Shown piece after piece: positions 10,511-30,054 of a DNA stretch of 32,000 nt. The notes under the pieces were generated by a model. It was given only the letters and a program-made list of their open reading frames with translations, ran no database searches and was not told the origin of the DNA. Position 1 is the first letter of the stretch, and every line of letters begins with the position of its first letter. Origin of the DNA: Balneola sp. (GTDB taxonomy: Bacteria; Bacteroidota; Rhodothermia; Balneolales; Balneolaceae); contig NZQV01000020.1 in assembly GCA_002696035.1 (NCBI GenBank), forward strand, positions 14,202 through 46,201. Direction: 5' to 3'. Position numbers and translations under genes: made by a program.

Positions 10511-10887
10511 AATCGTGTCTTTAAGAGGTTAAAATTAACTACTTATAAAACAGATTCAGGTTTGTATTAGAGCGCAACTTTATAACAAGAACAATTATCC
10601 CGAATTGTGTATCGATGGGTTGATCAAAACATAAACTACCATCATTAATTTAAGTTTTGTGCAGAACTACAGTATACAAAGAAATTACCTAGGCTATAAT
10701 TCCATATGCAATGATTAATTTTTTACTTAAGCCTATATGCATTTTAATTAATAATCTTTTTTAAAGACAGCACATTGTGAACTTCTGGCAAGGGGTTAAG
10801 GAGCAGAAATATGGTATCTAACGGTAAGAGTTGAAGTTTTGAATTGAATAGTGTTAATTCAGTTCGAATTAAGGGGTTATATATACA

Positions 10888-11895
10888 ATGCTGACTAAAA
10901 CGTTGATTCAAGCTTTACAAGGGGATGAACGCGCAACAGATCAATTGTGCATCCAGTTTCGGTATATAGCCGTTGCTTATCTGCGGTCTAAAGCTAAATC
11001 CAAAGACTTTTTGCTAGATCATTTATACAAGAATATTGATGACCTGGCATTGGACTGTATTGCCGATCTATTTGGAAGGTCAAATCAATGTCTGCAAAGT
11101 ATTGAGGCATTTTTAACCCTTGACCAGATCAAAGAAATGAGTGAAAGTGAGGTTCAAACAAAAGTTCGTCAACTTATTTTTAGTAAAGTAAATGATGGAC
11201 TGTATCAGAACTTCCAAAAATTGGATCCATCACTATCCCGAATAATTCGAAACCTGAAAAGAACGCTTGATGAGGATAAGGTCGCGGGACTAAACTATGA
11301 TCCAAGATCAGGTGAGATAGTAATTTCAGGTGAGAACCATTCCCTTCCGAATATGCCGGATGAAATTCTGGAGATCAAGATTTCCGCAAGGTTTTCTGAG
11401 ATCAAGAACAGTGTTGATGCGATCAAGGCACTTGCTTTTATAATCAGAGAAGCTGAAGAATACTCATCCAAAATAAAATTGGTCAATTTTGCTGTACTAC
11501 TGAGGAAAGTTTCTGCATACCGGCTTGAAAATGAAGTGGAGAACCTGACCTTGAAAGCGGGTGAGGAATACGATAGAACACATCTGAAAAAGATCCTGAC
11601 TGAATGTATAGCTACGGAAAGGATACATCTGCAAAAAACGTATGTGGAATCAAAAAAAGTAGATAAGAACCTTTTTGAAAAATATATGAGGGCAACCGAA
11701 AAGATATTAATAGCAGAATTTATTTCTGCATTGCCCCGGGAAGGATACTTTGAACATGTTGAATACTATCTGCCGGAATTAGATTATGGGAGATATAGAG
11801 CCGGGCACCGCCAAATTTTCGAATATATAGTGAAGAAAGTACGGGAACAGTTTTTAGCCCGAGTCAAAAAAGCAAAAAATTTCAGCAATACATAG
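10888..11895 (+). CDS. hypothetical protein with a sigma-70 region-2-like N-terminus (function unknown)
   Basis: 335-aa ORF with no competing frame and an ATG start after a 377-bp AT-rich intergenic region. The N-terminus LIQALQGDERATDQLCIQFRYIAVAYLRSKAKS...DDLALDCIADLF resembles the opening of ECF sigma factors (LI.RAQ.GD..AF..L...Y......A). The remainder is helical with no motif I recognise. Confidence 0.55.
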   Translation: MLTKTLIQALQGDERATDQLCIQFRYIAVAYLRSKAKSKDFLLDHLYKNIDDLALDCIADLFGRSNQCLQSIEAFLTLDQIKEMSESEVQTKVRQLIFSKVNDGLYQNFQKLDPSLSRIIRNLKRTLDEDKVAGLNYDPRSGEIVISGENHSLPNMPDEILEIKISARFSEIKNSVDAIKALAFIIREAEEYSSKIKLVNFAVLLRKVSAYRLENEVENLTLKAGEEYDRTHLKKILTECIATERIHLQKTYVESKKVDKNLFEKYMRATEKILIAEFISALPREGYFEHVEYYLPELDYGRYRAGHRQIFEYIVKKVREQFLARVKKAKNFSNT

Positions 11896-11947
11896 CTTTG
11901 GTAATGATGCAGTATAAAGTTGAGACAAGAACAATAGAAAGCAGCCT

Positions 11948-12703
11948 TTGAAGAAAATAAGTGAACATAGCATAGAGCAGTATATCAGGTTTTCCGATGA
12001 ATTAAGTTCAGCAAGAAAGCGGGAAATCAAACAAGTGATCGATCAATCAGAAGAACTGCAAGCGACCTATCAGTTTTTGTTGAGCTATTATGAAGAACTG
12101 GACAGGGTTTTCGGGGTGCAACCTTTTGTCTTTCCTTTAAAGCCTCTGCAGCTTAAAGAAAGAAGTGCAGGACCCGTTGTGCTGGCTGCAATGACATCCG
12201 CACAAGAAAGATCGATGCTGCAAACGAGAGTTACATTGGTGTCAGAGGAAAATAATAGGGTGGTAAGAGTCCTCGAAAACGAAAGAGATAACTGTTTGCA
12301 ATTTCATGTTATTTCGGAAAAAGAAGGGCAGAATGAACGGGTGATACTGTCTTTGGTGAAACCAGAGATCGACCTCGTTACCGATGAATTTGGTAAACTG
12401 AAAGGGGTTCGGGATCTGAGTAATATTGATTGGAACTCCATCTATTCCGTGCTTAGGGTGCCGGGTTTAAAATTAGAAATAGATCCTGAATACCACTCTT
12501 TTCCAGTGGCAGATCATTCAAAAGTGCAATTAAGTTTTGATGGCAAAAAGATCGAGATCAGCGTAGCGCATTGTGATAACGATTATTCAAGAATATTACT
12601 GGTTCAAAAGGGATCTACGGAACTTCAGATTGTGACAGCGAATAAAGTTGTATTCAATCTGGAGGCTAACGACAAACCTTTCTCCCTATATTTTTATGAA
12701 TGA
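11948..12703 (+). CDS. hypothetical soluble protein with an anti-sigma-like N-terminal helix (function unknown)
   Basis: 251 aa, with a TTG start as called by the track and no in-frame ATG nearby. The N-terminus IEQYIRFSDELSSARKREIKQVIDQSEELQATYQFL follows the spacing of anti-sigma N-terminal domains (L..YLDGEL...E...VE.HL..C..C...L) but lacks the His/Cys zinc ligands. It has no TM segment and the C-terminal part looks beta-rich. Confidence 0.5.
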   Translation: MKKISEHSIEQYIRFSDELSSARKREIKQVIDQSEELQATYQFLLSYYEELDRVFGVQPFVFPLKPLQLKERSAGPVVLAAMTSAQERSMLQTRVTLVSEENNRVVRVLENERDNCLQFHVISEKEGQNERVILSLVKPEIDLVTDEFGKLKGVRDLSNIDWNSIYSVLRVPGLKLEIDPEYHSFPVADHSKVQLSFDGKKIEISVAHCDNDYSRILLVQKGSTELQIVTANKVVFNLEANDKPFSLYFYE

Positions 12704-12728
12704 CCATTAATGCTTCAGCTTCAACAAA

Positions 12729-14879
12729 TTGGATCCCATTAAAATTGAAAAGCTATTCCACAAAATAATTGCTGATATAAAGCGTGCGGGATCTGAGCGG
12801 GTACAACTTTTCTTTATTCATGAATTTATTCTGGCACTCCAAAATAAATACAGGACCTACGACAGCTACCTGATCCAGCTTTTTGAGTTATTCCCTGCCT
12901 TAGAACATCCCCTCCTGTTTACCGGATTGAAACCGGAAGTCTTGAAAGTGGTTATACGGGATTGTGAGGAAGTGATCTCCGAGATCCCCGAGCTGAATGA
13001 AAGTAATGCAAAATTGCTGCGAAAAGTAGACCATTTAAAAGCAGGTTTAGACCAGATTCACGATTGGCTTGGGATCGACGATGAACCCCGTGAAGGGAGT
13101 CATATACCTTCTTTAAAAAGTTCTGAGGAACCAGGCCCGGAAAATGAAAGGAATACCGGAGAAGTTTTTATTCCGGTAGTTGAAGCTTCAGGGAAATTTG
13201 AAGCTAAAGGGCAGCTTCGGAAGCTGAAAGTAGAAGTTGTAGGCGAGTCGGGGTCTGGCCATTTTGAGCTGCGTCCGGTCTTTGGGGTGATAGGTGCACA
13301 AACAGGTGAGCTCGGGAAAAAACCTGCAAAAGCAGCCGGCATTCTGCTTAAAGAACACATCGAAACTCCAAAATTGTGGAAAGGAACTGCGCAGTTTGAA
13401 ATGACGCATACATGGCATGCAGGAAATTCGGCAAATGTAGCTTTATCAGGGTTATTCTATTGTGAGATGTTAAGAGCGGAAAAAAGGAGGGAATATTTTA
13501 GATTGAATCCCGGTATTGCCATCACAGGAGATATCAATGAAAAAGGGGAAGTGGTTGAGGTAGATGGTCCAACTTTAAAGCAAAAAGTTGCTGCAGCATT
13601 TTTTTCATGGGCGCAGGTTCTGGTAGTTCCCTATCAGCAATTTGAGCAAGCAGAAAAGTACATAACCCGGCTGAACAAGGCATATCCAAACCGGAATTTG
13701 GTGCTAAAAGGTATCGGGCATTTACGTGAGCTGTTCTTTGATCGCAGGCTGAGTCTTCATACAAAAACATCCCTGATAGAACATACAGCTCAAAGGTTAT
13801 GGAAAAAGAAATACAGTGCTGTTGCGGTGATAACTATTATCGTCTTGCTGGGCATTATTGGCCGATTGATCTACGGGCCGGTTGACAAGAATCCTGTTTC
13901 CGTGAATTTTGCGGGAGCGTATGCAGTACTGGAAAATAAAAGTGGGTTGAAGGTTGGGAGTATTCATTTTGGAGAAAGAGATATTGATCTGATCAATAAT
14001 ACGAACAGTTCGATTATTGATTTTTATGATATCTCCGGGGATGGTTTGAACGAAGTGATATATGCAAAGAAGCTCGGAAATTATAGCGAAGGTAGTGCAG
14101 TGATAGAGGCACGCTCAGTAACTACAGATACAACATTGTGGAGCACAGAATTCAATTTTGATATTGATTTTCCAAAACAACAAGGCATGGAGAATCTATA
14201 TTTTCACGTATCTGAACTTAAGATTACATCAGATAAAAAGGGTGTCCCAAAATTAATGGTTATGGGTGATGCGGGAGTCTCTTTTCCCGGAATATTAGCC
14301 AAATACGACCTGTTGACTGGAGTGCTGGAAAGCTATTATCTGCATGTTGGCGACCTTGGGGATATGCTTCTGGCCGATATTGATGAGGACGGAGTGGATG
14401 AAGTTCTGATGGTGGGCATCAACAATGCATACTGGATGGCAAGCCTGATCATCCTGGATCTGGATTCCATTTCGGGTCACTCTCCCACCAAAGGAGATTA
14501 CATCCCTGCTAATAGCGATGTATCTTCGGGACAAACATATGTGCTATTCCCAAAAACCATTGTAGGGCAAGCATTCGATCAAATTTACAAATATAACAGT
14601 GGCAGACGAGTAGCCCACCGAAAAGAAAAGCAGATCATTGCTGTGGAAATATTTGATACACCCCGGCAGAATTTTATGGGGGTGGTAAGTCAGGGCTACC
14701 TGATCTATGAATTCGATTACGATCTAAACATCAAAAGCATCATAAGCAGTGATGATTACGATGTAACCGCCCGAAATTTATATGAAGAAGGGCATATCCC
14801 TTTTATACCTGACTATGAATATTGGGAGGGATTTAGGGATTCGGTGTTGGTATGGGGTAGTGGTTTGGGAGATCTATAA
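12729..14879 (+). CDS. bitopic membrane protein: cytoplasmic Lon-type (S16-like) Ser-Lys peptidase domain, TM helix, periplasmic FG-GAP/VCBS-like domain
   Basis: 716 aa with a TTG start. Residues about 145-335 align by eye to the Lon proteolytic domain: WHAGNSANVALSGLF matches DGPSAG.A...AL.S, with Ser234 at nt 13428..13430. IAITGDINEKGEVVEVDGPTLKQKVAAAFFSWAQVLVVP matches VAMTGEITLRG.VLPIGGLKEKLLAA.R.GI..VIIP, with Lys284. There is a single TM helix, AVAVITIIVLLGIIGRLIY (nt 13815..13877). The C-terminal ~330 aa carry DxDxDGxxE-type motifs DISGDGLNEV and DIDEDGVDEV. Confidence 0.6.
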   Translation: MDPIKIEKLFHKIIADIKRAGSERVQLFFIHEFILALQNKYRTYDSYLIQLFELFPALEHPLLFTGLKPEVLKVVIRDCEEVISEIPELNESNAKLLRKVDHLKAGLDQIHDWLGIDDEPREGSHIPSLKSSEEPGPENERNTGEVFIPVVEASGKFEAKGQLRKLKVEVVGESGSGHFELRPVFGVIGAQTGELGKKPAKAAGILLKEHIETPKLWKGTAQFEMTHTWHAGNSANVALSGLFYCEMLRAEKRREYFRLNPGIAITGDINEKGEVVEVDGPTLKQKVAAAFFSWAQVLVVPYQQFEQAEKYITRLNKAYPNRNLVLKGIGHLRELFFDRRLSLHTKTSLIEHTAQRLWKKKYSAVAVITIIVLLGIIGRLIYGPVDKNPVSVNFAGAYAVLENKSGLKVGSIHFGERDIDLINNTNSSIIDFYDISGDGLNEVIYAKKLGNYSEGSAVIEARSVTTDTTLWSTEFNFDIDFPKQQGMENLYFHVSELKITSDKKGVPKLMVMGDAGVSFPGILAKYDLLTGVLESYYLHVGDLGDMLLADIDEDGVDEVLMVGINNAYWMASLIILDLDSISGHSPTKGDYIPANSDVSSGQTYVLFPKTIVGQAFDQIYKYNSGRRVAHRKEKQIIAVEIFDTPRQNFMGVVSQGYLIYEFDYDLNIKSIISSDDYDVTARNLYEEGHIPFIPDYEYWEGFRDSVLVWGSGLGDL

Positions 14880-15077: not shown

Positions 15078-18000
15078 ATGTTGGGCAAAAAAAGATACAA
15101 ACTTAGTAAGGTGTGGGCTTTTCTATTCGTTTTGATGGGAATGGGATTAACTGCCAACGCACAAATGGTAACGGGAACTGATACGCTTTTCTATGACACC
15201 GAAACCTCATCATGGGACTTCTATGATTTTTCACATGCAACAGCTTTTGGGATTGATGATACAGCTTCTTTCGATGCAGATATTCGGGGTAGTAGTAATG
15301 AAGGGGGGAGTTTTGGTAGAGAGTATTCTCCAGAAGTATTGGAGAATCGTCTGTATTTGATTGGGGATGGAGGTCTGGATACAGCAGTTACAGTTCCTGA
15401 ATGGGTTGATGGTTCGCCGTGGGTAAGTGACGCCTGGCAAGCAAATGGAGGCCAACCAATAGTGACAGATCGTCTGTGGGCGATATATACTCAGGAAGGG
15501 ACTTATGCAATTATAGAATTCACTGAAATAGTAAGTGGAAACTATTATGTATTCGATTATAAATACCAAAGCGATGGTTCCAGAAATTTTGAAGAAGCTG
15601 ATTTTGGTGGAGGATCTTCAGGAATCGTAGAAGGATCGGCAACTAGTTCGAGCGGTAGTGGTTTTGATTTTTCAAGAGAAGAGACAGCAGACAATCATGA
15701 TGCCGGAGATTACCTGGTAGATTTTGTTTTTGTAAATAATGAAGGCGTAAATTTTGGGAACGAAGGAAGTGGATCTATTGATAGTACTGGTCGCCGGTTC
15801 CTGTTGTTGGGTGAGGGTAGTATTGATGAAGTTCAGGAAGTTCCTGCTAGAACGGATGCTGAACCGTGGGTTACGGTGTCATACGATGCTACCGGTTATC
15901 AACCCATTTCAGTAGGTCAGCTTTGGGCCGTATATACCCGCGAGGGAAATTATGGGGTCATAGAAATTACCGATCTGCCGGGTGGTGACTTTGGCAGTTC
16001 ATTTAATTTTAACTATAAATACCTGGATGATGGCAGCCGTGATTTTGGGGGAAGTGGAGATACCGGAGATCCGATACCAGATGTGATCACAATTGCTGAA
16101 GCACGGAATCTGGCCCCGGGCGAATTAGTAACCATTAAGGGTATTGTAACAAGTGCGAATAGAATTTATTCCAACATTCAGCAAGATACCGCGGGAATCT
16201 TAACCTACACCCCTTCGGGAGAAAATGTATCCGGTGATTATTTTAATGCCATTGAAAACGGAGATGTTGCTATAGGTGATTCTATAAGGATTACAGCCTA
16301 CCGAGAAGATTTTCAGGGCCAAAAAGAGCTGTTGGATTTTGTGGATTTCAATGTTTTTTCCAGAGGGAATCCTTTACCACAAGCCGAACTGCTTACCCTT
16401 GATGAATTCTTTGCTTCGGGAGATAATTATAACCCGGAGCGGATAAGAGTGAACGATCTTAGCATTCCTGGATCAAGTATTTTTGAAAGCGGGAGAACTT
16501 ATATAGCTGTTGAGAATAGTACTGGTAACAATATACGGTTCATTGTGCCACAAGGGAATAACCTGGCTGGAACGGAGATACCCGCCGTTTTTGAATACGA
16601 GGGTATTGCCGGCTATTCTACGGCTTATAGTTATGGTGCCAATCAGCAGCTTTTGGGACTGGAAGAATTTAATATAATTGAAGTTGAACCCCCCATTCCT
16701 TCAGATTCTACGGCTGCTCCTAATGGCAGTTTTGAGTATTCAAGCTTGGGTGAATTTATGGGAGAATCACCCGGCTGGTTTGCCGATTTTGATGCCGATA
16801 CAGGTGCTATGGGGACATTTGAGATCATTGATACCGAATTTCAGGATGGAGAGAAAGCACTCGAAGTTTCTATAAATAGTGTCCATCCGGAAGCGGATCA
16901 CTGGAGCATTCAAGTAGTGAACGAAAAGTTTAATTTGGTTCCCGGGAATCAGTATGAACTTTCGTTCTGGGCAAAATCAGCACAAAGTGGCGCAGTAATA
17001 GGTGGATTTATTCAAAATCAGGACTACGGTAATTTTGGAACTATCGCACAGGAGGAGTTATCTACATCCTGGACAGAGTATAAGACCACATTTGTAGCAA
17101 ATTCTGGAGATACAATAAGTACCGATGATAGTATTGGCCGTGTGGCTATATATTTGAACTACGAGGCAAATGAAGGCAAGCAGATCTACATTGATAATCT
17201 TCAGGTTAATGAAATTGAAAGCGGACCCATTGAAGGAGATCTTTATGATGGTGCTCTCACTGGAGCTGAAGGGCAAAGTTATTTTCTGCCTCTAAATATT
17301 GAATTGCTCAATGGCGTTCCTTTAGATGCTTTTGAGATCAAGGTAAATTTTGATCTTTCTTTCACAGAAGTTTCACTGGGAGAACAAGAAGGCACCCATG
17401 CTGATTATTTTGATATTGAAACAAATTCACCTGAACCCGGAGTCTTGCTTATTTCTGGAGCTACGGCAAATGGTATAACAGAATCTGGTCCGTTGATGTA
17501 TTTAGAGATAACAGCCCTGAGCTCAGGCACGGGGTCGATCGAAATTACAGACGTTTTCTTTAACGAAACGAGCATCAATGATGCATCTATCTCATTGGAT
17601 TTTGAAACTGGTTTTGTCTGTGGTGATGTAACCGGAGATTTAAATGTATCTGCCACAGATGCCTCATATGTTTTACGGCATACTGTGAAATTGTCTCCGC
17701 AATATCCATTGACCGGGCAGGATTCTACGGCCGCAGATGTAACCGGCAACGGCTGGATCTCAGCCTATGATGCGTCCCAGATTCTAAAGTATAACGTGGG
17801 CATGCCGGCCATTATGAATTGTGCATCTGCACAAGCTAAAATGGCTCCGCTGGCAGTTCAGGTTGACTGGGATTATTGGTCTGAAGGTGATGAGGGCTCT
17901 GAATATTCCGTTCCACTTAGTTTGAACGACCTTGAGGGAGCACTTACTGCGGCTGAAATACAGATCCCAATGACGGAGGGTTTGAAATTCAAGGGGATAA

Positions 18001-18479
18001 ATAACGCTCCGGAAAACTGGCAAGTAACTACGAATGTGAGAGATGGTGTTGCATATGTATCAATGTTTGGAGCAGAAACCGTGGAGTCGGAACTGTTAGG
18101 AGAACTGGCCTTTGAACTCATCGATAAAACTGAAGTTCAAAATATTGAGGGCAGAATTGTGGTGAATGAAAACCCACCGGTTCAACTTGAGAAACTGACA
18201 CTTAATGATCTCCCAAGGGAATTTAAGGTTTCTCAGAATTACCCAAATCCATTCAACCCAACTACCCAGATCAAATACAGTGTTCCGGAGGATGCAAAAG
18301 TTCAGCTTTTTGTATACAATCTGTTAGGGCAGAAAGTGGCAGAATTGGTGAATGAACAGAAATCGCCGGGCCGATATACCGTAAGCTGGGATGCAGGTAA
18401 CAACTCGAGTGGGGTGTACATGTACCGTCTGGTAGCCGGAGAAAATGTGTTCACCAAGAAAATGATGCTAATCAAATAA
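15078..18479 (+). CDS. T9SS-sorted multidomain surface protein (duplicated N-terminal module, OB-fold-like, CBM4/9-like, cohesin-like, dockerin, cohesin-like, T9SS CTD)
   Basis: 1133 aa with a signal peptide [29 protein letters not shown].
- CBM4_9-like segment at 16719..17213 (PNGSFE...WSIQV...[12 protein letters not shown]...IYIDNLQV).
- Cohesin-like segments at 17271..17573 and 17898..18176.
- Two-repeat dockerin at 17619..17801 ([20 protein letters not shown] ... [23 protein letters not shown]).
- T9SS C-terminal domain at 18216..18476 ([19 protein letters not shown]...GVYMYRL..G....TKKMMLIK). Confidence 0.85.
15213..16049 (+). repeat. intragenic duplication: two copies of an uncharacterised module of about 127 aa
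   Basis: Copy A covers aa about 46-172 (...[61 protein letters not shown]...[13 protein letters not shown]). Copy B covers aa about 195-324 (...[62 protein letters not shown]...[13 protein letters not shown]). The similarity is at protein level; the DNA has diverged. Confidence 0.75.
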
Positions 18480-18486
18480 CAGGACG

Positions 18487-20973
18487 ATGAAAAAGATTGC
18501 AGGACTACTATTTATAATTTTTCTTACATCGTATGCTAACCTGGCAATGGGGCAACTCCAAGTCTCGTTGCCAGACCTGGAGATACAGAATGCAGATACC
18601 ACCCTTGAAGTACCAATTACAATTCAAGGACTGGCTCCGGACTCGATCAGCGGCTTTACTTTTGAAGTCACTTTTGATCCCGGGGTAGCCATTGTAACGG
18701 GCCATTCAAAGTCCGGTACCTCATCAGCAGGATTTTCTGTGGTGGGAAATAGTAATTCAGAAACTACGTACAGAGTATCTGGAGCAGGCTCCGATCCAAT
18801 CTATGATAATGGTACTATTCTAAAAATAGAAGTACAGGTAATGGGATCAGGAACTTCTGTACTTGAATTCTCAGAGATCGAGATAAATGAAGGAGAACCG
18901 GCTTTTACATCAAATAATGGAAGCATTACGGTTGGAGGCCTTCCAGGTATTCCTGGTCTGACTTCTCCGGGAAATAACCGCACGGGAATTGCTATCAATA
19001 CAACATTGCATTGGGAATCTGTGCAAGCTGCCAGTAGTTATGAGCTGCAGGTATCGGAGTCTTCAGGTTTTCAAAGTTTGATAGCAGATGAAAGCCTCAC
19101 TTCTGAATCTTTTGCGCTGCAGGGCTTGGATTATACAACAATATATTTTTGGCGGGTTCGGGCCATAAATAGCTCGGGTAGTAGTGACTGGTCGGAGGTA
19201 TTTTCGTTTACCACAAAAGAGGTTCCGCTGCCAGAAGCTCCATCGCTTTCATCTCCTTTGAATGAATCAGAGCAAATTTCTGTCGATGTCATTTTTGATT
19301 GGGAGGAATCCAACTTAGCGGAGCATTATACACTTCAGCTTTCAACTACAACTACCTTTGGATCCGGTTCTCTTACAATTAATGAATCGGTTTCAGAAAC
19401 GACGTATTCAGCAGAAGATCTGAACCATAACACAACCTATTACTGGCGTGTGAAGGCCGAAAATTCAGACGGAGAAAGTGATTGGTCTGATACCTTTTCA
19501 TTCTCCACCATCGTTGAAGCTCCCGGCCTTGCAACACTGATGTTTCCCGCTAATGAAGCCGAAAGCGCAGATACACTTGTCACGCTGGTTTGGGGTGAAG
19601 CTGACAGAGCTGAATCTTATCAGGTGCAGGTGGCCTCAAATAATGATTTCAGTCCTGCTGTTTATGATGGAGAAGTTGCAGATACCGTTTTAAGTATTGG
19701 CGGGTTGAACTTTTCAACGACCTATTACTGGCGGGTAAAATCGCTGAATGCAGGAGGAGAAAGTAATTGGAGCTCAAGAGCTGAATTTACAACCGGAGCT
19801 GCACAAGCGGGTTTGCCAACATTGGCAAGTCCTCAAAACAACGCGACCGGAACCGACACGTCTCTCACTTTTACCTGGAATGCAGGAGAAAATGCGGTTA
19901 GCTACAAAATTCAGGTAGCGAGTGATGTAGAATTCAATTCTGTTGTAAGGGAAGAAAGCAATGTTTCAGGTACTTCCATCACTTTTGATGACTTTGAACA
20001 CGAAGCCCGCTATTATTGGAGGGTGAGAACCAATGCTGAGAATACAACTTCGGGTTGGTCCAGTACCTTCAATTTTACAACACTTGAGAAAGAAAACAAG
20101 CCGCCAGTAGTGGAAAACCCGATGGGAAGTATTTCACTATCAGAAGATTTTGGGAATTCTACCGTGGTTGATCTGAAAACGGTTTTTTCGGATGATCAGA
20201 CATCGCAATTATCATTTGAACTCATCGATTTCACAGAGCAAATATTTACCGCTGTCATTAATGAAAATTCAGAATTGATTTTAACATCGATTGAAGATCA
20301 ATTTGGTAATGCGAAGGTTGTGGTAAGTGCCAGTGATGAAGATGGGGCTACCATTCAAGATACCCTCGATGTAACTATTGATCCTGTAAACGATTTACCC
20401 GAGTTTGTTCAAATTCCCGATACCGTTCGGTTTACCAGCGGGGAAGAATATACCCTTCAATATGGAAACATTGCAGCAGATGTAGAAGATGAGTTCTCAG
20501 ACCTTACCTTCAGTTTTAACATAGAGCCGGAAGAATTAACCTTTGAAGTATCCGTTTCAGCTACTGAGATCACCATTTCTTCATCTGATTTTGTGGGGGA
20601 AGGGGTACTTACTTTCAGTGTGGAAGATTCTGATGGCGGAAGAATTGAGGGAAGTATTGTGTTGGTGGTTGAGACGGGCACTTCATCGGAGTTACAAGAA
20701 ACAGTTCCGGAAGAATTTGTCTTATCTCAGAACTTTCCCAATCCATTCAACCCGACCACCCAAATTCAATATCAGCTGCCCGAAGCTGCTTCGGTCCAGT
20801 TCAGAGTGTTTGATATGACGGGGCGTATCGTTCATGATGCAGGAGTTGAGCGGAGATCAGCCGGTTCGTATACGCTTTCATTCGATGCCGAATCTCTTTC
20901 AAGTGGTATTTATCTCTACCAAATTAAGGCCGGATCATTTAGTGAGACAAAAATCATGACATTGATAAAATAA
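18487..20973 (+). CDS. T9SS-sorted surface protein (N-terminal cohesin-like domain, 4 FN3-like repeats, cadherin-like modules, T9SS CTD)
   Basis: 828 aa, starting 7 nt after the previous gene.
- Signal peptide MKKIAGLLFIIFLTSYANLAMG.
- Cohesin-like domain at aa 24-150 (TLEVPITIQGLAPDSISGFTFEVTFDPGV...GTILKIEVQVMGSGTSVLEFS).
- Four repeats of about 95 aa, each ending YYWRV.A....S.WS..F.F.T.
- Two modules ending in VNDLP-type motifs.
- CTD at 20713..20970 ([19 protein letters not shown]...GIYLYQI.AG.F.ETKIMTLIK). Confidence 0.85.
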   Translation: MKKIAGLLFIIFLTSYANLAMGQLQVSLPDLEIQNADTTLEVPITIQGLAPDSISGFTFEVTFDPGVAIVTGHSKSGTSSAGFSVVGNSNSETTYRVSGAGSDPIYDNGTILKIEVQVMGSGTSVLEFSEIEINEGEPAFTSNNGSITVGGLPGIPGLTSPGNNRTGIAINTTLHWESVQAASSYELQVSESSGFQSLIADESLTSESFALQGLDYTTIYFWRVRAINSSGSSDWSEVFSFTTKEVPLPEAPSLSSPLNESEQISVDVIFDWEESNLAEHYTLQLSTTTTFGSGSLTINESVSETTYSAEDLNHNTTYYWRVKAENSDGESDWSDTFSFSTIVEAPGLATLMFPANEAESADTLVTLVWGEADRAESYQVQVASNNDFSPAVYDGEVADTVLSIGGLNFSTTYYWRVKSLNAGGESNWSSRAEFTTGAAQAGLPTLASPQNNATGTDTSLTFTWNAGENAVSYKIQVASDVEFNSVVREESNVSGTSITFDDFEHEARYYWRVRTNAENTTSGWSSTFNFTTLEKENKPPVVENPMGSISLSEDFGNSTVVDLKTVFSDDQTSQLSFELIDFTEQIFTAVINENSELILTSIEDQFGNAKVVVSASDEDGATIQDTLDVTIDPVNDLPEFVQIPDTVRFTSGEEYTLQYGNIAADVEDEFSDLTFSFNIEPEELTFEVSVSATEITISSSDFVGEGVLTFSVEDSDGGRIEGSIVLVVETGTSSELQETVPEEFVLSQNFPNPFNPTTQIQYQLPEAASVQFRVFDMTGRIVHDAGVERRSAGSYTLSFDAESLSSGIYLYQIKAGSFSETKIMTLIK
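18943..20082 (+). repeat. four tandem FN3-like repeats of about 95 aa (protein-level)
   Basis: The repeat ends are marked by YFWRVRAINSSGSSDWSEVFSFTT, YYWRVKAENSDGESDWSDTFSFST, YYWRVKSLNAGGESNWSSRAEFTT and YYWRVRTNAENTTSGWSSTFNFTT. Each is preceded by a SP.N......V.F.W......Y.LQV motif. Confidence 0.8.
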
Positions 20974-21311: not shown

Positions 21312-23123
21312 ATGAATCGGGTACATGTCGGGGTTTTGGTAATAGGGATTCTGCTATCATATTCGGTATCGGGGTTAGCACAGACAACGAGCAATCGGAT
21401 GGCCGCTCCAGATGAAGCTGAGGAAGCTTCAAAGTATGAACAGTACTACGAAGTGATATTAGATCGCTCTTTACGTGAATATTATGATAGGGGAACTTAT
21501 ATCGTTGATGTGAAAGCCATTATCGAACGAGTTATGGTAGCAAAGGGATACGATATGGTAGAATCCCCACCAAATATAGAAATAGAAAACCTGCCTGGAT
21601 TACCTGTAATTCCTCCTAACTTAAGGAATAATCAAAATCAGGATAGTTTAAAGGTTTCTGGTTTTGATTCAAGATATAAGCTTACAGGGCTAAATGTAAA
21701 GGTGCTTGTTGATACATCCTACTCTGAGGAGGATATTGAGTTTATTGAAGAAGCCGCAGCCATGATATCTAATGCTGACTTATTGAGAGGAGATGTTATT
21801 GAAGTAACCGAAAGGGTTTTTCCAGGGATAGAGAGGACTCGTATTCAAACTCAGTCAGAATTGGATACTAATGGCGGCGATATTGAAGAGGCAGAACCTG
21901 AATTAAATAGGTTTTTGGGAATGAATTGGAATGATCCAAAGCAGCTTTTATATGTTATTTTTGGGTTAGGGCTTTTACTTTTTGGTCTTCTGTTATTCTT
22001 GTCTTTTCGAAAGCGCAGACCAACAGAGTTTGATGAAAATAGGACTCGTTATCAGCAACCCCCAGAGTTTAATCCACTATCTCAAGGCAATGAAAATAAT
22101 AATGGAAAAGAGTCAAATGAGGTGCGCGAAATCAATACTGACAAGCAGCAACAGTTTGAAAAGGACAAAATGTACATTACTAATACATGTGTAAGTGAGC
22201 CGCAGATGGTAGCAAATCTTGTTTCAGGTTGGATAGAGGATGATAAAGAGGAAGGTGTAGTACGGGCGGTCCGACAGGTTTATAGCGTTGATCATAAGTT
22301 GTTGAATATTTTAGAAGATCATCTTACTGATGAACAATATAATTCTATACAGTTTGGCCTTTCAAATATTGACTCTATTCCTATTGAAGAAAAAGTAGAG
22401 GAAGTTGCTCAGTTTAAGAAGAGTATACAGGGCATAAAAAAAGAACGTCAAAAGAAAGATTCTGAATCAAACCTGTTCGGTTTCTTAAAACAGCTTACCA
22501 ATCAGCAATTGGTGCATTTGGTTAAAGGGGAGTCAGATGAGATGACTGCAATACTGCTAGCCCAGGTTGCAGGAGAGCGTTCAGGCTATGTGTTGCAAAA
22601 AATGAAGGAACAGAAACGCATTTCGGTTGTCTTAAAAATGGGCAAGATCAACAATATTCCCGTGTCTATATATAAAAGAGTGGCAGCTCATTTTTCTTCG
22701 AAGGCATTGTCAGTATCTGATATGAAATTTGTAGCTGCAGATGGGGTTGAATCTATACTCGCCACTATAGACAGTATGCCAGTGAGCAAGCAGGAGGAGT
22801 TCGTAAATTCAATCGCAGAGCAAGATATAGAATTGGCCAAAAAGATTAGAAAGTACTTTGTAGCTTTCGAAGATATTCCGGATATGGAAGATGACTTATT
22901 GCAAAAAAGCATTGAAAATATTGGCACAGAAGACCTTGTCCCCGCACTTTTTGGAGCTGATAAAGATGTTCAGAAGAAAATACTCCAAGTGCGTCCTAAG
23001 AGAGAGCAACAGCTGATTATTTCAGAATTAAATAATACGAATGAGTTAAGTAAATCTGAAGTAGAGCAAGCCAGAAAAGAATTACTAAAAGTAATCCGAA
23101 ATCATCTAAAAAAAGTAGGCTGA
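21312..23123 (+). CDS. bitopic membrane protein: FliF C-terminal-like periplasmic segment, TM helix, full-length FliG-like cytoplasmic domain (rotor-like fusion)
   Basis: 603 aa.
- N-terminal signal/TM segment VHVGVLVIGILLSYSVSGLAQ.
- Periplasmic LNVKVLVDTSYSEEDIEFIEEAAAMISNADLLRGDVIEVTERVF (nt about 21684..21827). This parallels the Salmonella FliF segment RLSVAVVVN...QIEDLTREAMGF..KRGDTLNVVNSPF, which precedes FliF TM2.
- TM helix LLYVIFGLGLLLFGLLLFLSF (21942..22007).
- Cytoplasmic aa about 296-603, FliG-like: LVHLVKGESDEMTAILLAQVAGERSGYVLQKMKEQKRISVVLKMGKI (M-domain pattern L..EHPQ.IALIL..L....AA.VL..L......V..RIA), AADGVESILATID....QEEFVNSIAEQDIELAKKIRKYFVAFEDI and LLQKSIENIGTEDLVPALFGADKDVQKKILQVRPKREQQLIISEL....ELSKSEVEQARKELLKVIR (C-domain pattern). 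Confidence 0.7.
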   Translation: MNRVHVGVLVIGILLSYSVSGLAQTTSNRMAAPDEAEEASKYEQYYEVILDRSLREYYDRGTYIVDVKAIIERVMVAKGYDMVESPPNIEIENLPGLPVIPPNLRNNQNQDSLKVSGFDSRYKLTGLNVKVLVDTSYSEEDIEFIEEAAAMISNADLLRGDVIEVTERVFPGIERTRIQTQSELDTNGGDIEEAEPELNRFLGMNWNDPKQLLYVIFGLGLLLFGLLLFLSFRKRRPTEFDENRTRYQQPPEFNPLSQGNENNNGKESNEVREINTDKQQQFEKDKMYITNTCVSEPQMVANLVSGWIEDDKEEGVVRAVRQVYSVDHKLLNILEDHLTDEQYNSIQFGLSNIDSIPIEEKVEEVAQFKKSIQGIKKERQKKDSESNLFGFLKQLTNQQLVHLVKGESDEMTAILLAQVAGERSGYVLQKMKEQKRISVVLKMGKINNIPVSIYKRVAAHFSSKALSVSDMKFVAADGVESILATIDSMPVSKQEEFVNSIAEQDIELAKKIRKYFVAFEDIPDMEDDLLQKSIENIGTEDLVPALFGADKDVQKKILQVRPKREQQLIISELNNTNELSKSEVEQARKELLKVIRNHLKKVG

Positions 23124-23127
23124 TAAG

Positions 23128-24219
23128 ATGAGAATATTTCTGCTAATAATGTTAATGGTGATTGGATTCCTTCAGCCGGGGCAAGCACAAAAAGAACTAA
23201 GGGAAGCTGAAAGGCGTGCTGAAACTTATATGATGAGTCGGATATCAGATCAATTAAGTACAGAGTTGAGTGATCTTCCAATAAATATCAGGCGAATGGC
23301 AATTTATAAGATAAATTATAACAGTAATAGATTTAGCAATGAGTCGATCGCTTTTATAAAAGGGGAAATCGAAACTGTATTTAAGGAGCATTCGCCAGTC
23401 TCAGTCATCTCACCACCTGAATTGGACCCGACTGATAAACTCAAAATTGTTGGGACAGATTCAACTTTGAAATTGATGAACATAAAAGGCCGCTCCTTAG
23501 CAGACATGTCACCTGAATTATTGGAAAGTGTTGCCAATAAATATTTATTAAGTGGACTTGCTGAGCTTACTTTGCAACGCCATTTTACAGAAGGGTTAGT
23601 AGTACAAATTCGAATTATGAGTCCTCAATCTCGTGAAATCGTATGGACGAGAAGTATAGTCGCATATCCCGTAGGAATTCAGGAAAAAGATAATACCGGA
23701 AAAAATGTGGTCATAAGGTTTGGAACCACGGTAATGAGTAATGAATTTTATACCAATCCTATCGCATCAAATATTGAGAACTCAGTCGAAACCTCCTCTT
23801 TAAATTACAATTTTAACTTTGGGTATCGTCAGTCATTCAATGAAGAGAATAGTGGATATCTTGGGTTTTATACAGGCTTTAATATTATTCGGTCAAATGC
23901 GAGTGAGGAGTTTGAGGCTGACTTTTGGGAATTGGGCATTTCTTTTGACCAGGCAATTTCTATGAAAAATGAACAGATTAATGACTATCGGGTAATGCTT
24001 GGTGTTGATTCCTCAGTTTGGTTGGCTATGGGAGATAACAAAGGTAACCTTATTACATTTAACCCCTCTTTAATATTGAATATGACCAAAAATATAGGCT
24101 TTGAATTATATGGTCAATACTTTTTAGGTGATCGGGCATTTACAAGTGATGATGTAAGTAGTAACACATACACATATGGACAATTTGGATATGGAGTGAA
24201 AGCCTATGTACAATTTTAA
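23128..24219 (+). CDS. secreted protein, probable outer-membrane beta-barrel with an N-terminal alpha/beta periplasmic module
   Basis: 363 aa, starting 4 nt after the previous stop. It has a signal peptide MRIFLLIMLMVIGFLQPGQAQ. The C-terminal half has alternating aromatic/polar beta-strand patterns (LNYNFNFGYRQSF, GYLGFYTGFNII, IGFELYGQYFLG) and the terminal ...YGVKAYVQF, where the C-terminal Phe is typical of BAM substrates. The N-terminal part (RRMAIYKINYN...GLAELTLQRHFTEGLVVQIRIMSPQSREIVW) loosely recalls FlgO/CsgG/LpoB-type modules, but this is a weak inference. Confidence 0.55.
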   Translation: MRIFLLIMLMVIGFLQPGQAQKELREAERRAETYMMSRISDQLSTELSDLPINIRRMAIYKINYNSNRFSNESIAFIKGEIETVFKEHSPVSVISPPELDPTDKLKIVGTDSTLKLMNIKGRSLADMSPELLESVANKYLLSGLAELTLQRHFTEGLVVQIRIMSPQSREIVWTRSIVAYPVGIQEKDNTGKNVVIRFGTTVMSNEFYTNPIASNIENSVETSSLNYNFNFGYRQSFNEENSGYLGFYTGFNIIRSNASEEFEADFWELGISFDQAISMKNEQINDYRVMLGVDSSVWLAMGDNKGNLITFNPSLILNMTKNIGFELYGQYFLGDRAFTSDDVSSNTYTYGQFGYGVKAYVQF

Positions 24220-24832
24220 AGAATTATCAACCTGTTTAATATTGATTTTTTTGGCTCAATCTTGTGCACCTACTGAGAGAGGTATCTCTGAGGGAGGAGG
24301 ACAATATTATACACTGGATGAGCTGCGTCAATTAGATCAGATTACTGAAGAAAAAAATGATAAAGTTATTCTGAACTACAAAAATGAAAGTTCGGGAATA
24401 CAAATTCGTCTTGATCCAGAAAAGGATGAATTTTTTCTAGACCTGAAAGGAATGCAACCGGCAGAAAAAGATACTGTTATAATTGCGGACTCGACACTCA
24501 TCGAAAACCGTGAAAGAGATATTCAAACAGTACTTTCTAAATTCAGAAATGCTCAGGATCTATTTTACCTGGAAGAATATACAGAAGCCTTGAGGTTGCT
24601 AAATGAAACACTCCAAATTGCTGAAACAGCAGATGCATACGCTCTCAAAGGAACCATTCATTTTATGATGGGTAATCAAAATGCAACCCGTGAAAATTGG
24701 AATCGTGCAGTCCAGATCAATCCTGACTTGCCTATACCAAGTATTCCGGAGCTCGAAACTATTATTGAAGATATTAAGCAGGAAGAAGGTATAGAGCCTT
24801 CAGCTGAAGATCAGGAACAAGAAGAACAGTAA
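24206..24832 (+). CDS. probable lipoprotein with a TPR repeat and an acidic C-terminal tail
   Basis: 208 aa, overlapping the previous gene by 14 nt. The signal sequence has a lipobox-like LIFLAQSC. A TPR-like segment reads YLEEYTEALRLLNETLQIAETADAYALKGTIHFMMGNQNATRENWNRAVQINPD. The C-terminus is EEGIEPSAEDQEQEEQ. Confidence 0.6.
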   Translation: MYNFKELSTCLILIFLAQSCAPTERGISEGGGQYYTLDELRQLDQITEEKNDKVILNYKNESSGIQIRLDPEKDEFFLDLKGMQPAEKDTVIIADSTLIENRERDIQTVLSKFRNAQDLFYLEEYTEALRLLNETLQIAETADAYALKGTIHFMMGNQNATRENWNRAVQINPDLPIPSIPELETIIEDIKQEEGIEPSAEDQEQEEQ

Positions 24833-24846
24833 GAGGAGATCAATTA

Positions 24847-25677
24847 ATGAGGTTATCGTTAACGAACATTTTTGGGGTATTATTTAGTATAGGGATTTTG
24901 GTTTTTGGGATATTAGAGGTGACTGGAGCTACATCTTATATAGAATCTATTCCTATACTTTCCGATTATCAATTTTTAAATATTCCAAGTCTATTTATTG
25001 TGATGGGAGGGGTTTTGAATGCTGTCTTTATAACGTATCAACCTCGTTATGTAGGTAAGGCATTTTTGAGTTTATTCTATTTTTTTAGTCAGGCTAAAAC
25101 CAATTCTAAAGCTTTAGAGAATGATCTGGATAATATTCTGGAATGGAATGAGCAGATCCGTGATAACCGGGTTCAGGCATTATCTAAATTTGAAGAAGAG
25201 CATCAGGACGAGATCGAGGGGTTTTTATTTTCTTTGATAAGTACGAATTATAACAATGAAGAAATTCGTGATTTTGGCTCTAATAATATCGAAGAACAAT
25301 ATTTTCGTAAAATGGTTGTGGTTGATGTGCTTAGGGCAATGGGCGGTGCAGCACCCTCATTCGGGATGTTTGGTACATTATTCGGACTAGTGGTTATGTT
25401 GGGCGAACTTGATAACCCATCAGCTATGGGGCCTGGACTTGCCGCTGCCCTGATCACCACGCTGTATGGAATTGCCTTGGCTAGATTCATTTTCTATCCG
25501 ATGGCAGAAAAACTTAAAAACATAGCGCAGATGAATAAATTTAGGGAGTACTTTATTTTAGAAGGTATACTCCTTATCAATGAGAAAAAGTCATCATTCT
25601 ATATTAAAGATAAAATGAAGACATATTTACAAAGAGATTTTAAAAGAGAAGAAGAGTTAGAGCTGCAAGGGGTATAA
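24847..25677 (+). CDS. MotA/PomA-type (4-TM) proton/ion channel stator subunit
   Basis: 276 aa. Two N-terminal TM segments are followed by a cytoplasmic loop of about 100 aa. Next comes GGAAPSFGMFGTLFGLVVMLGELDNPSAMGPGLAAALITTLYGIALARFIFYPMAEKL, the MotA_ExbB core, with both conserved prolines in the positions of E. coli MotA P173 and P222. Confidence 0.85.
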   Translation: MRLSLTNIFGVLFSIGILVFGILEVTGATSYIESIPILSDYQFLNIPSLFIVMGGVLNAVFITYQPRYVGKAFLSLFYFFSQAKTNSKALENDLDNILEWNEQIRDNRVQALSKFEEEHQDEIEGFLFSLISTNYNNEEIRDFGSNNIEEQYFRKMVVVDVLRAMGGAAPSFGMFGTLFGLVVMLGELDNPSAMGPGLAAALITTLYGIALARFIFYPMAEKLKNIAQMNKFREYFILEGILLINEKKSSFYIKDKMKTYLQRDFKREEELELQGV

Positions 25678-25678
25678 C

Positions 25679-26362
25679 GTGAAGCGCAATGGAGGTTTAG
25701 GCCGGAACTCAAATAATGATCGCAATGTCCATGAAGAAGATCTGGAGTGGCTTCTTACTTACAGCGATATGATAACTCTGTTGTTGGCTTTTTTTGCAGT
25801 TCTAATCGCAGTTTCCCACGTAGATATAAATCTTTGGGAACAGATGAAACAGGGACTTCGCTCTGAAGTAAGTAAACAGGAAAATGTTCGGACTCCCCTG
25901 GCTGAGGTTAAGAAAGATCTGGATGAGAGATTGGCTTCAGAACGTGAAGCTAACCTTGTGGATATAACACTCGGCCGTGAAGGAATTAAACTATTCTTTA
26001 ATAGCAGTTCATTCTACAATTCTGGGGAAGCTGAGTTATTACCTACTGGGCAAAATATCATTGATATTGTGACCGAGGCGATGAGTGACTTGGGATACTA
26101 TCAATTTAGAATTGATGTGGAAGGCCATACTGATAATGTTCCTATTAGCACTGCTCGGTACCCGTCTAACTGGGAGCTTTCAGTGGCACGGGCTTCGGAA
26201 ATCGTGAAGTACTTTATTGAGGAGGGAATTGAAGGAGACCGTTTGAAAGCTTCTGGGTATGCAGACACTCAACCAGTTGTGCCGCACGTGGATGAAGATG
26301 GTAATGATATCATCGAGAACCGAGCACTAAACCGGCGTATAGTAATTAGGATTTATTACTGA
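25679..26362 (+). CDS. MotB/OmpA-family stator anchor subunit
   Basis: 227 aa, with a GTG start 1 nt after the motA-like stop. The N-terminal WLLTYSDMITLLLAFFAVL carries the conserved channel Asp (MotB D32 equivalent). The C-terminal OmpA-like peptidoglycan-binding domain reads GHTDNVPI........SNWELSVARASEIVKYF...GI...RL.ASGYADTQPV......NRALNRRIVIRI. Confidence 0.85.
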   Translation: MKRNGGLGRNSNNDRNVHEEDLEWLLTYSDMITLLLAFFAVLIAVSHVDINLWEQMKQGLRSEVSKQENVRTPLAEVKKDLDERLASEREANLVDITLGREGIKLFFNSSSFYNSGEAELLPTGQNIIDIVTEAMSDLGYYQFRIDVEGHTDNVPISTARYPSNWELSVARASEIVKYFIEEGIEGDRLKASGYADTQPVVPHVDEDGNDIIENRALNRRIVIRIYY

Positions 26363-29979: not shown

Positions 29980-30054
29980 GGGCGATTAGCTCAGTTGGTT
30001 CAGAGCACCTCGTTTACACCGAGGGGGTCGGGGGTTCGAGTCCCTCATCGCCCA
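29980..30054 (+). tRNA. tRNA-Val (anticodon TAC)
   Basis: 75 nt, folding by hand into a cloverleaf.
- Acceptor stem GGGCGAT/ATCGCCC plus discriminator A.
- D stem GCTC/GAGC.
- Anticodon stem CCTCG/CGAGG with loop TT-TAC-AC.
- 5-nt variable loop.
- T arm GGGGG-TTCGAGT-CCCTC.
The 3' CCA is not encoded. Confidence 0.93.

Follow-up and report, generated by a model that had tools for sequence, protein, structure and literature searches.

What do three adjacent genes of unannotated families do between a transporter gene and two surface-protein genes on a bacterial chromosome? This question is raised by a 32,000-nucleotide (nt) stretch of DNA from Balneola sp. (GenBank assembly GCA_002696035.1, contig NZQV01000020.1, positions 14,202 to 46,201), referred to here as the window. 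Three open reading frames (ORFs) follow one another on its plus strand, namely ORF1 (10888–11895, ATG start, 335 amino acids, aa), ORF2 (11948–12703, TTG start, 251 aa) and ORF3 (12729–14879, TTG start, 716 aa), and the TTG starts of the latter two match the N-termini of their homologues in alignments. Database proteins with 100% identity to ORF2 and ORF3 are labeled Balneola sp. An earlier examination of the bare letters, the sequence-only reading, had proposed a sigma-like protein, a soluble anti-sigma-like protein and a membrane protease acting as a signaling module. The analysis reported here indicates that the trio is probably a three-part regulated-proteolysis switch which carries a signal over the inner membrane. 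ORF3 would be the sensor and protease, ORF2 the soluble inhibitor to be cut, and ORF1 the regulator to be set free.

ORF3, a putative membrane Lon-type protease

ORF3 is well supported by its sequence as an ATPase-less Lon-type protease joined by one helix to a periplasmic FG-GAP domain. Hydropathy analysis found a single hydrophobic helix (13812–13874, plus strand; aa 362–382, Kyte-Doolittle 19-residue maximum 2.52) and no N-terminal signal peptide. Four lysine or arginine residues lie in the 15 residues before this helix and one lies after it, which fits an N-in orientation. Given the helix, the missing signal peptide and the basic residues on the N-terminal side, aa 1–360 should therefore be cytoplasmic. 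This part (12729–13811, plus strand) would comprise an N-terminal region free of database matches (approximately aa 1–140) and the ATPase-less Lon/S16-type domain (approximately aa 145–345), and no AAA+ or other Pfam domain was found in aa 1–230. The part beyond the helix (13875–14879, plus strand) is predicted to be a periplasmic FG-GAP/VCBS-type domain, presumably a beta-propeller, and is proposed as the sensor.

The conserved catalytic-motif residues Ser234 (codon 13428–13430, plus strand) and Lys286 (codon 13584–13586, plus strand) are invariant in an alignment of 39 ORF3 sequences, in which G232 and T/S266-G267 are also invariant or nearly so. The motifs around them, GxSA or WHAGxSANLAL for the serine and K..AAFFSW or K.EAAFFSW for the lysine, mirror the catalytic motifs of Lon. 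No recovered ORF3-like protein covering the domain lacks this dyad, and this holds for tandem copies as well as for the forms of about 1,000 aa in Ignavibacteria. When the family profile was searched against PDB, the top match was Lon protease 2 (8dvh_A, E 0.0096), and the Ser/Lys motifs align with those of both 8dvh_A and 1z0b_A. The Pfam domain Lon_C was detected in 2 of the 39 family members (best E 1.5e-7), the window ORF3 itself having no Pfam Lon match at E<=1, and weak NCBIfam matches at aa 257–316 were obtained to SepM (E 0.042) and LonB (E 0.095). In the PADLOC defence library, the sole model matching the family is CARF_LON, found in 13 of the 39 members (best 1.2e-5). On the periplasmic side, FG-GAP_3 was detected in 28 of the 39 members and FG-GAP in 14 (either one in 28), and FG-GAP remained undetected in the window ORF3 at E<=1. 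The sequence-only reading had described a cytoplasmic Lon-type Ser-Lys domain, one helix and a periplasmic FG-GAP-like domain, and this description is borne out by the conserved dyad, the PDB match to Lon and the topology.

The ORF3 gene is often tandemly duplicated in relatives, whose loci or contigs are labeled here by L-numbers and P0118 (duplications in L006, L007, L010, L013, L018, L019, L020, L027 and L048). The catalytic Ser and Lys are retained in both copies, which suggests hetero-oligomers or two inputs into one ORF2/ORF1 pair.

ORF2, a soluble anti-sigma-like protein

The product of ORF2 has no hydrophobic segment by hydropathy and is thus predicted to be soluble. In its AlphaFold2 (AF2) model (predicted local distance difference test, pLDDT, 70), three N-terminal helices (aa 6–51) are followed by a low-confidence linker and two beta-sandwich domains like those of immunoglobulins (Ig) or fibronectin type III (FnIII), and a Foldseek search of this model against PDB returned generic Ig/FN3 matches only. 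In established extracytoplasmic function (ECF) sigma biology, anti-sigma domains of the HxxxCxxC type are partners of sigma-2/sigma-4 domains. Distant relatives of ORF2 bear this motif at the aligned position, as HLSICDRC in L027, HLTQCAEC in L029 and HLKTCSWC in L062, and the Pfam model zf-HC2 falls on the motif residues with weak or below-threshold scores in L029 (E 0.01) and L062 (E 0.051). The profile of the ORF2-family N-domain matched no solved anti-sigma domain in PDB. The alignment makes homology of the ORF2 N-domain to zinc anti-sigma-type domains, and with it the anti-sigma reading, well supported. The sequence-only reading had seen an anti-sigma-like N-terminus lacking both zinc ligands and a transmembrane segment; the homologues agree with the first point, and alignment and hydropathy with the other two.

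The most conserved element of the ORF2 family is (L/F/Y/M)AA-x-(S/T), which 36 of 37 distinct proteins have. Its window version is the LAA-x-S/T motif L79-A80-A81-M82-T83 (12182–12196, plus strand), part of VVLAAMT (aa 77–83) within a segment modeled by AF2 at pLDDT <50 (aa 76–87). Since it lies in a disordered linker beside a Lon-type protease, the LAA motif is a specific and testable candidate for a cleavage and degron site. By analogy with the systems compared below, a cut at this position is proposed to expose a C-terminal ...VVLAA degron.

The trio across genomes

The trio was found in Balneolaceae (Gracilimonas among them), Rhodothermales and Ignavibacteria as well as on many metagenome contigs, with flanking genes that vary. 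Its synteny is stable between species of Balneola and Gracilimonas. The recurrence in these groups answers the question of conservation that the sequence-only reading had posed, and chance adjacency of the three genes is ruled out because all three are conserved together in dozens of loci.

Two independent contexts back the sigma/anti-sigma logic of the sequence-only reading. The KSB1 locus L005 encodes, in this order, a canonical ECF sigma factor, a 177-aa ORF2-like protein and an ORF3-like Lon_C protein. The sigma factor (Pfam Sigma70_r2 4.8e-10, r4_2 5.7e-16) stands at the position of ORF1, and the ORF2-like protein contains the conserved motif (GKMAADSE). L062 has an ORF1-family gene, next the gene of a 481-aa single-pass protein and then cargo genes of the type IX secretion system (T9SS). 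Residues 5–59 of the 481-aa protein resemble the ORF2 N-domain (E 7e-10) and hold the HLKTCSWC motif, a membrane helix comes after this domain, and the remainder resembles the ORF3 periplasmic domain (E 4.5e-56). Judged by homology, L062 would be the classic single-pass anti-sigma layout, put together from parts of ORF2 and of ORF3, and the ORF1 family would take the sigma position in it. The LAA motif is missing before the membrane helix of this fused protein. As a two-gene variant free of the protease exists, the core pair would therefore work without it.

Another arrangement was seen at L056 (4159–9151) and L061 (49–4046), where a short ORF2-like protein of 180 aa occurs with ORF3 and no ORF1 or sigma gene is adjacent. 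Upstream of both there are secreted proteins or lipoproteins only, and after them comes a T9SS cargo with six FG-GAP_3 repeats, the repeat type of the ORF3 sensor domain.

ORF1, a proposed regulator at the sigma position

ORF1 has no hydrophobic segment by hydropathy and should be soluble. Its family comprises 1337 cluster representatives (50% identity clusters) at E<=1e-3, almost all of 330–350 aa, and none of these representatives is named or annotated. Single-sequence searches of Pfam, NCBIfam, PADLOC and PDB with ORF1 were empty. The AF2 model (pLDDT 81.6) is mostly helical. According to this model and the alignment, the N-terminal 130 aa form a short helix, a QGD turn, a long helix and an acidic DDLALDCIADLF helix, a modeled pattern that gives the impression of sigma region 2, which is an impression and not a statistical result. 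The ORF1-family gene stands directly upstream of an ORF2-like gene or, in L062, of the gene for the single-pass HxxxCxxC protein, the orphans in L063–L065 excepted, and this is the place that an ECF sigma gene has relative to the gene of its anti-sigma factor. From this gene context, ORF1 is proposed to be the sequestered output regulator at the sigma position. That it is a sigma factor is unproven, and it cannot be classed as one.

Orphan ORF1-family genes, with neither ORF2 nor ORF3, were found in L063 (7001–8287), L064 (7001–8125) and L065 (5387–6412). They are divergent from clusters for polysaccharide export and synthesis (GNVR/ParA Wzc-like, SLBB, Polysacc_synt), and the orphan of L065 is convergent with the gene of a 2,110-aa Kelch/ASH-repeat protein.

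Comparison with known systems

Rouillon et al. are said to have described, in 2023, the type III CRISPR-associated CalpL/CalpT/CalpS, consisting of a SAVED-Lon protease, an anti-sigma factor and a sigma factor of ECF-like type. In this system, the target of the Lon protease CalpL is the anti-sigma factor CalpT, which it cuts within LAAA, so that the sigma factor CalpS is freed. The exposed LAA end of CalpT is a degron for cellular proteases, and released CalpS arrests the growth of E. coli (Smalakyte et al., bioRxiv 10.1101/2024.05.08.593097). By analogy, the closest precedent of the trio is CalpL/CalpT/CalpS and not DegS/RseP. Both have three genes, a sensor fused to an ATPase-less Lon-type Ser-Lys protease (ORF3 in the trio), a soluble partner of anti-sigma type whose Ala-rich LAA site (in ORF2 a candidate site) falls within an unstructured stretch, and a regulator that is, or is proposed to be, sequestered. 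There are differences as well. The sensor part of the trio is a membrane helix with a periplasmic FG-GAP domain, whereas that of CalpL is a cytoplasmic SAVED domain binding cyclic tetra-adenylate (cA4), and the trio has no CRISPR linkage and no SAVED or CARF domain. ORF2 has another layout, in which a short putative clamp at the N-terminus precedes a large Ig-like portion, and the ORF1 family, 335 aa long in the window, has no detectable sigma homology. ORF3 showed no sequence homology to the CalpL chains of PDB at E<=10. The trio is best described as a membrane-sensor version of a CalpL-type switch, derived in evolution from a sigma-position protein that was paired with a single-pass anti-sigma-like protein.

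The sequence-only reading had thought of an alternative to the DegS/RseP cascade in one polypeptide. The sensor and the protease do appear to be combined in one polypeptide; it is the comparison with DegS/RseP that has to give way to one with CalpL/CalpT/CalpS. Cleavage of RseA exposes a C-terminal VAA degron (as cited in bioRxiv 10.1101/2024.05.08.593097), and the proposed exposure of a C-terminal Ala-Ala degron by cutting is shared with the trio. In contrast to that cascade, the trio contains neither a site-1 PDZ protease nor a site-2 M50 metalloprotease, domains that Pfam detected neither in the trio nor in its neighbors, and ORF2 is soluble instead of membrane-spanning. As sensor and protease form one polypeptide, one cut would replace the two-step cascade. 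Classical pairs of ECF sigma factors and zinc anti-sigma (ZAS) proteins, whose activation proceeds via regulated intramembrane proteolysis in which DegS and RseP act on RseA before ClpXP does, share the single-pass layout of the L062 relative, which has the N-domain of ORF2 and the periplasmic domain of ORF3.

Enzymes of the SepM/YlbL type are also membrane-tethered, with a stand-alone Lon_C-type domain and no AAA+ module. Their protease domain lies outside the cytoplasm and they have PDZ domains, whereas ORF3 is predicted to have its protease domain in the cytoplasm and, on the outside, a domain of the FG-GAP type. LonA and LonB differ by the N-terminal AAA+ ATPase module, which was not detected in ORF3. 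Literature searches found no description of a trio with a membrane Lon/FG-GAP protein and an anti-sigma protein.

Proposed mechanism

From the conserved gene order, the domain architecture, the catalytic dyad, the LAA motif and the homology with zinc anti-sigma domains, we infer the following course of events. The periplasmic FG-GAP domain of ORF3 would sense a cue from the envelope or the cell surface. At rest, the N-terminal helical domain of ORF2 would bind ORF1 and keep it inactive, and the beta-sandwich domains of ORF2 would probably dock on ORF3. Activation of ORF3, possibly via oligomerisation, would be the first step, and ORF3 would then cleave the disordered linker of ORF2 at LAA (about A81/M82). 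The N-terminal ORF2 fragment, now ending in a C-terminal ...VLAA tag, would be recognised by cellular proteases such as ClpXP. Freed ORF1, most likely a transcription factor acting at the sigma level, may finally alter how strongly cell-surface genes are expressed, the neighboring T9SS cargo genes among them.

T9SS cargo genes and the upstream region

The layout given in the sequence-only reading was confirmed in its coordinates: the three same-strand ORFs are spaced by 52 nt (ORF1 to ORF2) and 25 nt (ORF2 to ORF3), a 377-bp AT-rich divergent region precedes them, and 198 nt separate ORF3 from the cargo. Two cargo genes follow on the plus strand, at 15078–18479 (1133 aa) and 18487–20973 (828 aa). 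Their assignment to T9SS cargo holds, since both have a Por_Secre_tail domain (E 1.3e-09 and E 3.3e-10, respectively), and both also have Cohesin, Dockerin, CBM and fn3 domains in Pfam. In 13 of 31 loci, the first sizeable gene beyond the final copy of ORF3 encodes a cargo with a sorting domain, compared with a cargo rate of 4.7% among the other genes of the same loci (Fisher p 7e-8, the loci not being phylogenetically independent). The linkage to cargo raised in the sequence-only reading is enriched, though not universal. No terminator was predicted between the window ORF3 and the cargo, and the genes at 15078–20973 are candidates either for targets of the switch or for co-transcription with the trio.

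The cargo after the trio repeatedly mixes cohesin/dockerin, CBM/fn3 and Por_Secre_tail domains, in the window as well as in L001 (12207–20067) and L002 (12393–17868). The cohesin/dockerin cargo may point to an assembly on the cell surface that resembles a cellulosome and is exported via T9SS.

The upstream intergenic region (10511–10887, plus strand) has a GC content of 0.30, compared with 0.42 for the window, and on its other side the minus strand encodes a BCCT transporter. It contains a conserved block AGTTGAA...AATAGTGTTAATTC...AATTAAGGGGTTA (10829–10879, plus strand), common to the window and the Gracilimonas relatives L001, L009 and L007, which is probably a promoter with a ribosome-binding site. 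One sigma-70-like hexamer pair was found, at 10673–10700.

Other genes of the window

Elsewhere the window is ordinary chromosome with genes for IleRS, LspA, RibBA, BCCT, Usp and fatty-acid oxidation. Window ORFs of 120 aa or more were scanned with Pfam, and neither defence genes nor genes of mobile elements were detected among them; none of the Pfam-scanned ORFs of the window contained cas or SAVED domains. With Rfam, the trio region showed no RNA element, and the only match in the window is a tRNA gene (29980–30054, plus strand).

A five-gene cluster (21312–26362, plus strand), outside any flagellar locus, adjoins the trio in three Balneolaceae genomes, with counterparts in L009 (12491–17665) and L008 (4500–7767). 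A 603-aa member has the FliG middle and C-terminal domains (aa 398–597), and the other members are a 363-aa protein without a Pfam match, a TPR protein, a MotA/ExbB protein and a MotB-plug/OmpA protein. This cluster of FliG/MotA/MotB type could be an unusual rotor-stator machine.

Weighing of the alternative readings

Several results weigh against the switch as proposed. The sequence-only reading had called ORF1 sigma-like and had named a lack of profile support for sigma or anti-sigma folds as a refutation; for ORF1, profile and fold searches gave no such support, so that this claim is left unsupported. Sigma70 Pfam matches at E<=1 were absent from sets of 31 and of 89 ORF1 members, the KSB1 sigma factor serving as a positive control in which both Sigma70_r2 and r4_2 were detected. 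Profile searches of PDB were empty. Alignment of the ORF1 family with hhalign to the KSB1 sigma factor and to an ECF alignment of 13 sequences (the KSB1 sigma factor and 12 plasmid-borne ECF genes) gave a probability <1%, and no robust signal emerged when the family was tested whole and in sub-regions with column-shuffled nulls as control. A lone local match to the sigma-4 helix-turn-helix (probability 7.5%) was discarded, since in the AF2 model the matching stretch forms one helix. Foldseek searches of the ORF1 model against PDB and BFVD found nothing under E=1. ORF2 itself had no match in Pfam, NCBIfam, PADLOC or PDB, and it has V30...S34..L37 (VIDQSEEL) at the motif position where its homologues keep HxxxCxxC, which therefore makes it a zinc-free relative. 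The canonical sigma context was seen once only, in KSB1, with no further loci of this kind in the metagenome scan. The fused anti-sigma context was sequenced once, and a second fused pair on the P0118 contig is deduced from gene sizes only. In over half of the loci no cargo follows the trio, and in L001 just 13 nt lie between ORF3 and the cargo, which makes co-transcription as likely there as separate control. The block upstream of ORF1 resembles a promoter of the housekeeping kind and not an autoregulated ECF promoter; by eye, no ECF-type motif is common to the regions upstream of ORF1 and of the cargo, the conservation being clade-specific only.

The switch may operate as proposed with an ORF1 that is no sigma factor at all and serves as another kind of regulator, an adaptor or an enzyme, the ORF2 domain having been recruited as a general clamp. 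All the homology tests just described speak for this, as do a length of about 340 aa, which is twice that of an ECF sigma factor and constant over more than 1,000 clusters, and an AF2 model that is confident (pLDDT 81.6) yet finds no sigma match. We nevertheless think a non-sigma output unlikely. The known partners of HxxxCxxC anti-sigma domains are sigma-2 and sigma-4, a genuine ECF sigma factor takes the place of ORF1 in KSB1, and the few Foldseek matches with probability >0.4 (E >2) are phage lambda Q and the sigma factor ShbA; the N-terminal sigma-2-like helix pattern, a reading and not a statistical result, points the same way. With a probability below even, ORF1 may found a hitherto unrecognised, double-length class of sigma-like factors that direct RNA polymerase, widespread in Balneolota, Rhodothermota, Ignavibacteria and relatives. 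This class would be under three interchangeable controls (none in the orphans, a single-pass zinc anti-sigma protein, or the transmembrane sensor-Lon protease) and would govern loci for T9SS surface proteins and polysaccharides. If this were so, the trio would offer the first instance of a signal from the envelope being relayed to a sigma-type regulator via a single membrane Lon-type cut.

Two further readings dispense with such a regulator or turn it to another use, and both are much less probable. ORF3 could be a quality-control protease for membrane- or secretion-bound proteins such as T9SS pre-cargo, with ORF1 and ORF2 as adaptors or chaperones and with no transcriptional output. Quality control is a common role of Lon-type proteases, T9SS cargo is enriched beside the trio, and the Ig-like domains of ORF2 could bind unfolded cargo. 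However, the protease domain of ORF3 is predicted to be cytoplasmic whereas cargo folding and sorting are periplasmic, a protease-free variant exists in which an ORF1 relative is paired with a membrane anti-sigma-like protein, and both the homology of the ORF2 N-domain to zinc-motif anti-sigma domains and the replacement of ORF1 by an ECF sigma factor in KSB1 speak against this reading; we hold quality control to be very improbable. The least probable of the readings is an anti-phage or stress abortive module akin to CalpL/CalpT/CalpS, in which a sensor of membrane perturbation frees a growth-arresting ORF1. It is suggested by CARF_LON as the only defence-library match and by the growth arrest of E. 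coli upon CalpS release, but the chromosome context is a housekeeping one without defence or mobile genes in the scanned window ORFs, the synteny over Balneola and Gracilimonas is stable, SAVED/CARF domains and cas genes are missing, and the trio is linked to T9SS cargo and polysaccharide loci instead of defence islands. The reading of the locus as a defence island was likewise rejected because its neighbors are housekeeping genes.

Implications

If the regulated-proteolysis switch operates as proposed, the CalpL-type logic in which a Lon protease cuts an anti-sigma factor would reach beyond CRISPR defence and become a general route of envelope signaling, with one membrane sensor-protease standing in for the two-protease RseA cascade. 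The proposal can be tested in the cultured hosts Gracilimonas tropica and G. mengyeensis, for which the predicted catalytic Ser234 and the predicted cleavage site LAA (aa 79–81) are defined points of attack. It would also give a function to three unannotated families, of which that of ORF1 alone comprises more than 1,300 clusters at 50% identity. Furthermore, it would provide a clue to the regulation of T9SS-secreted cohesin/dockerin surface proteins in marine Balneolaceae and their relatives.

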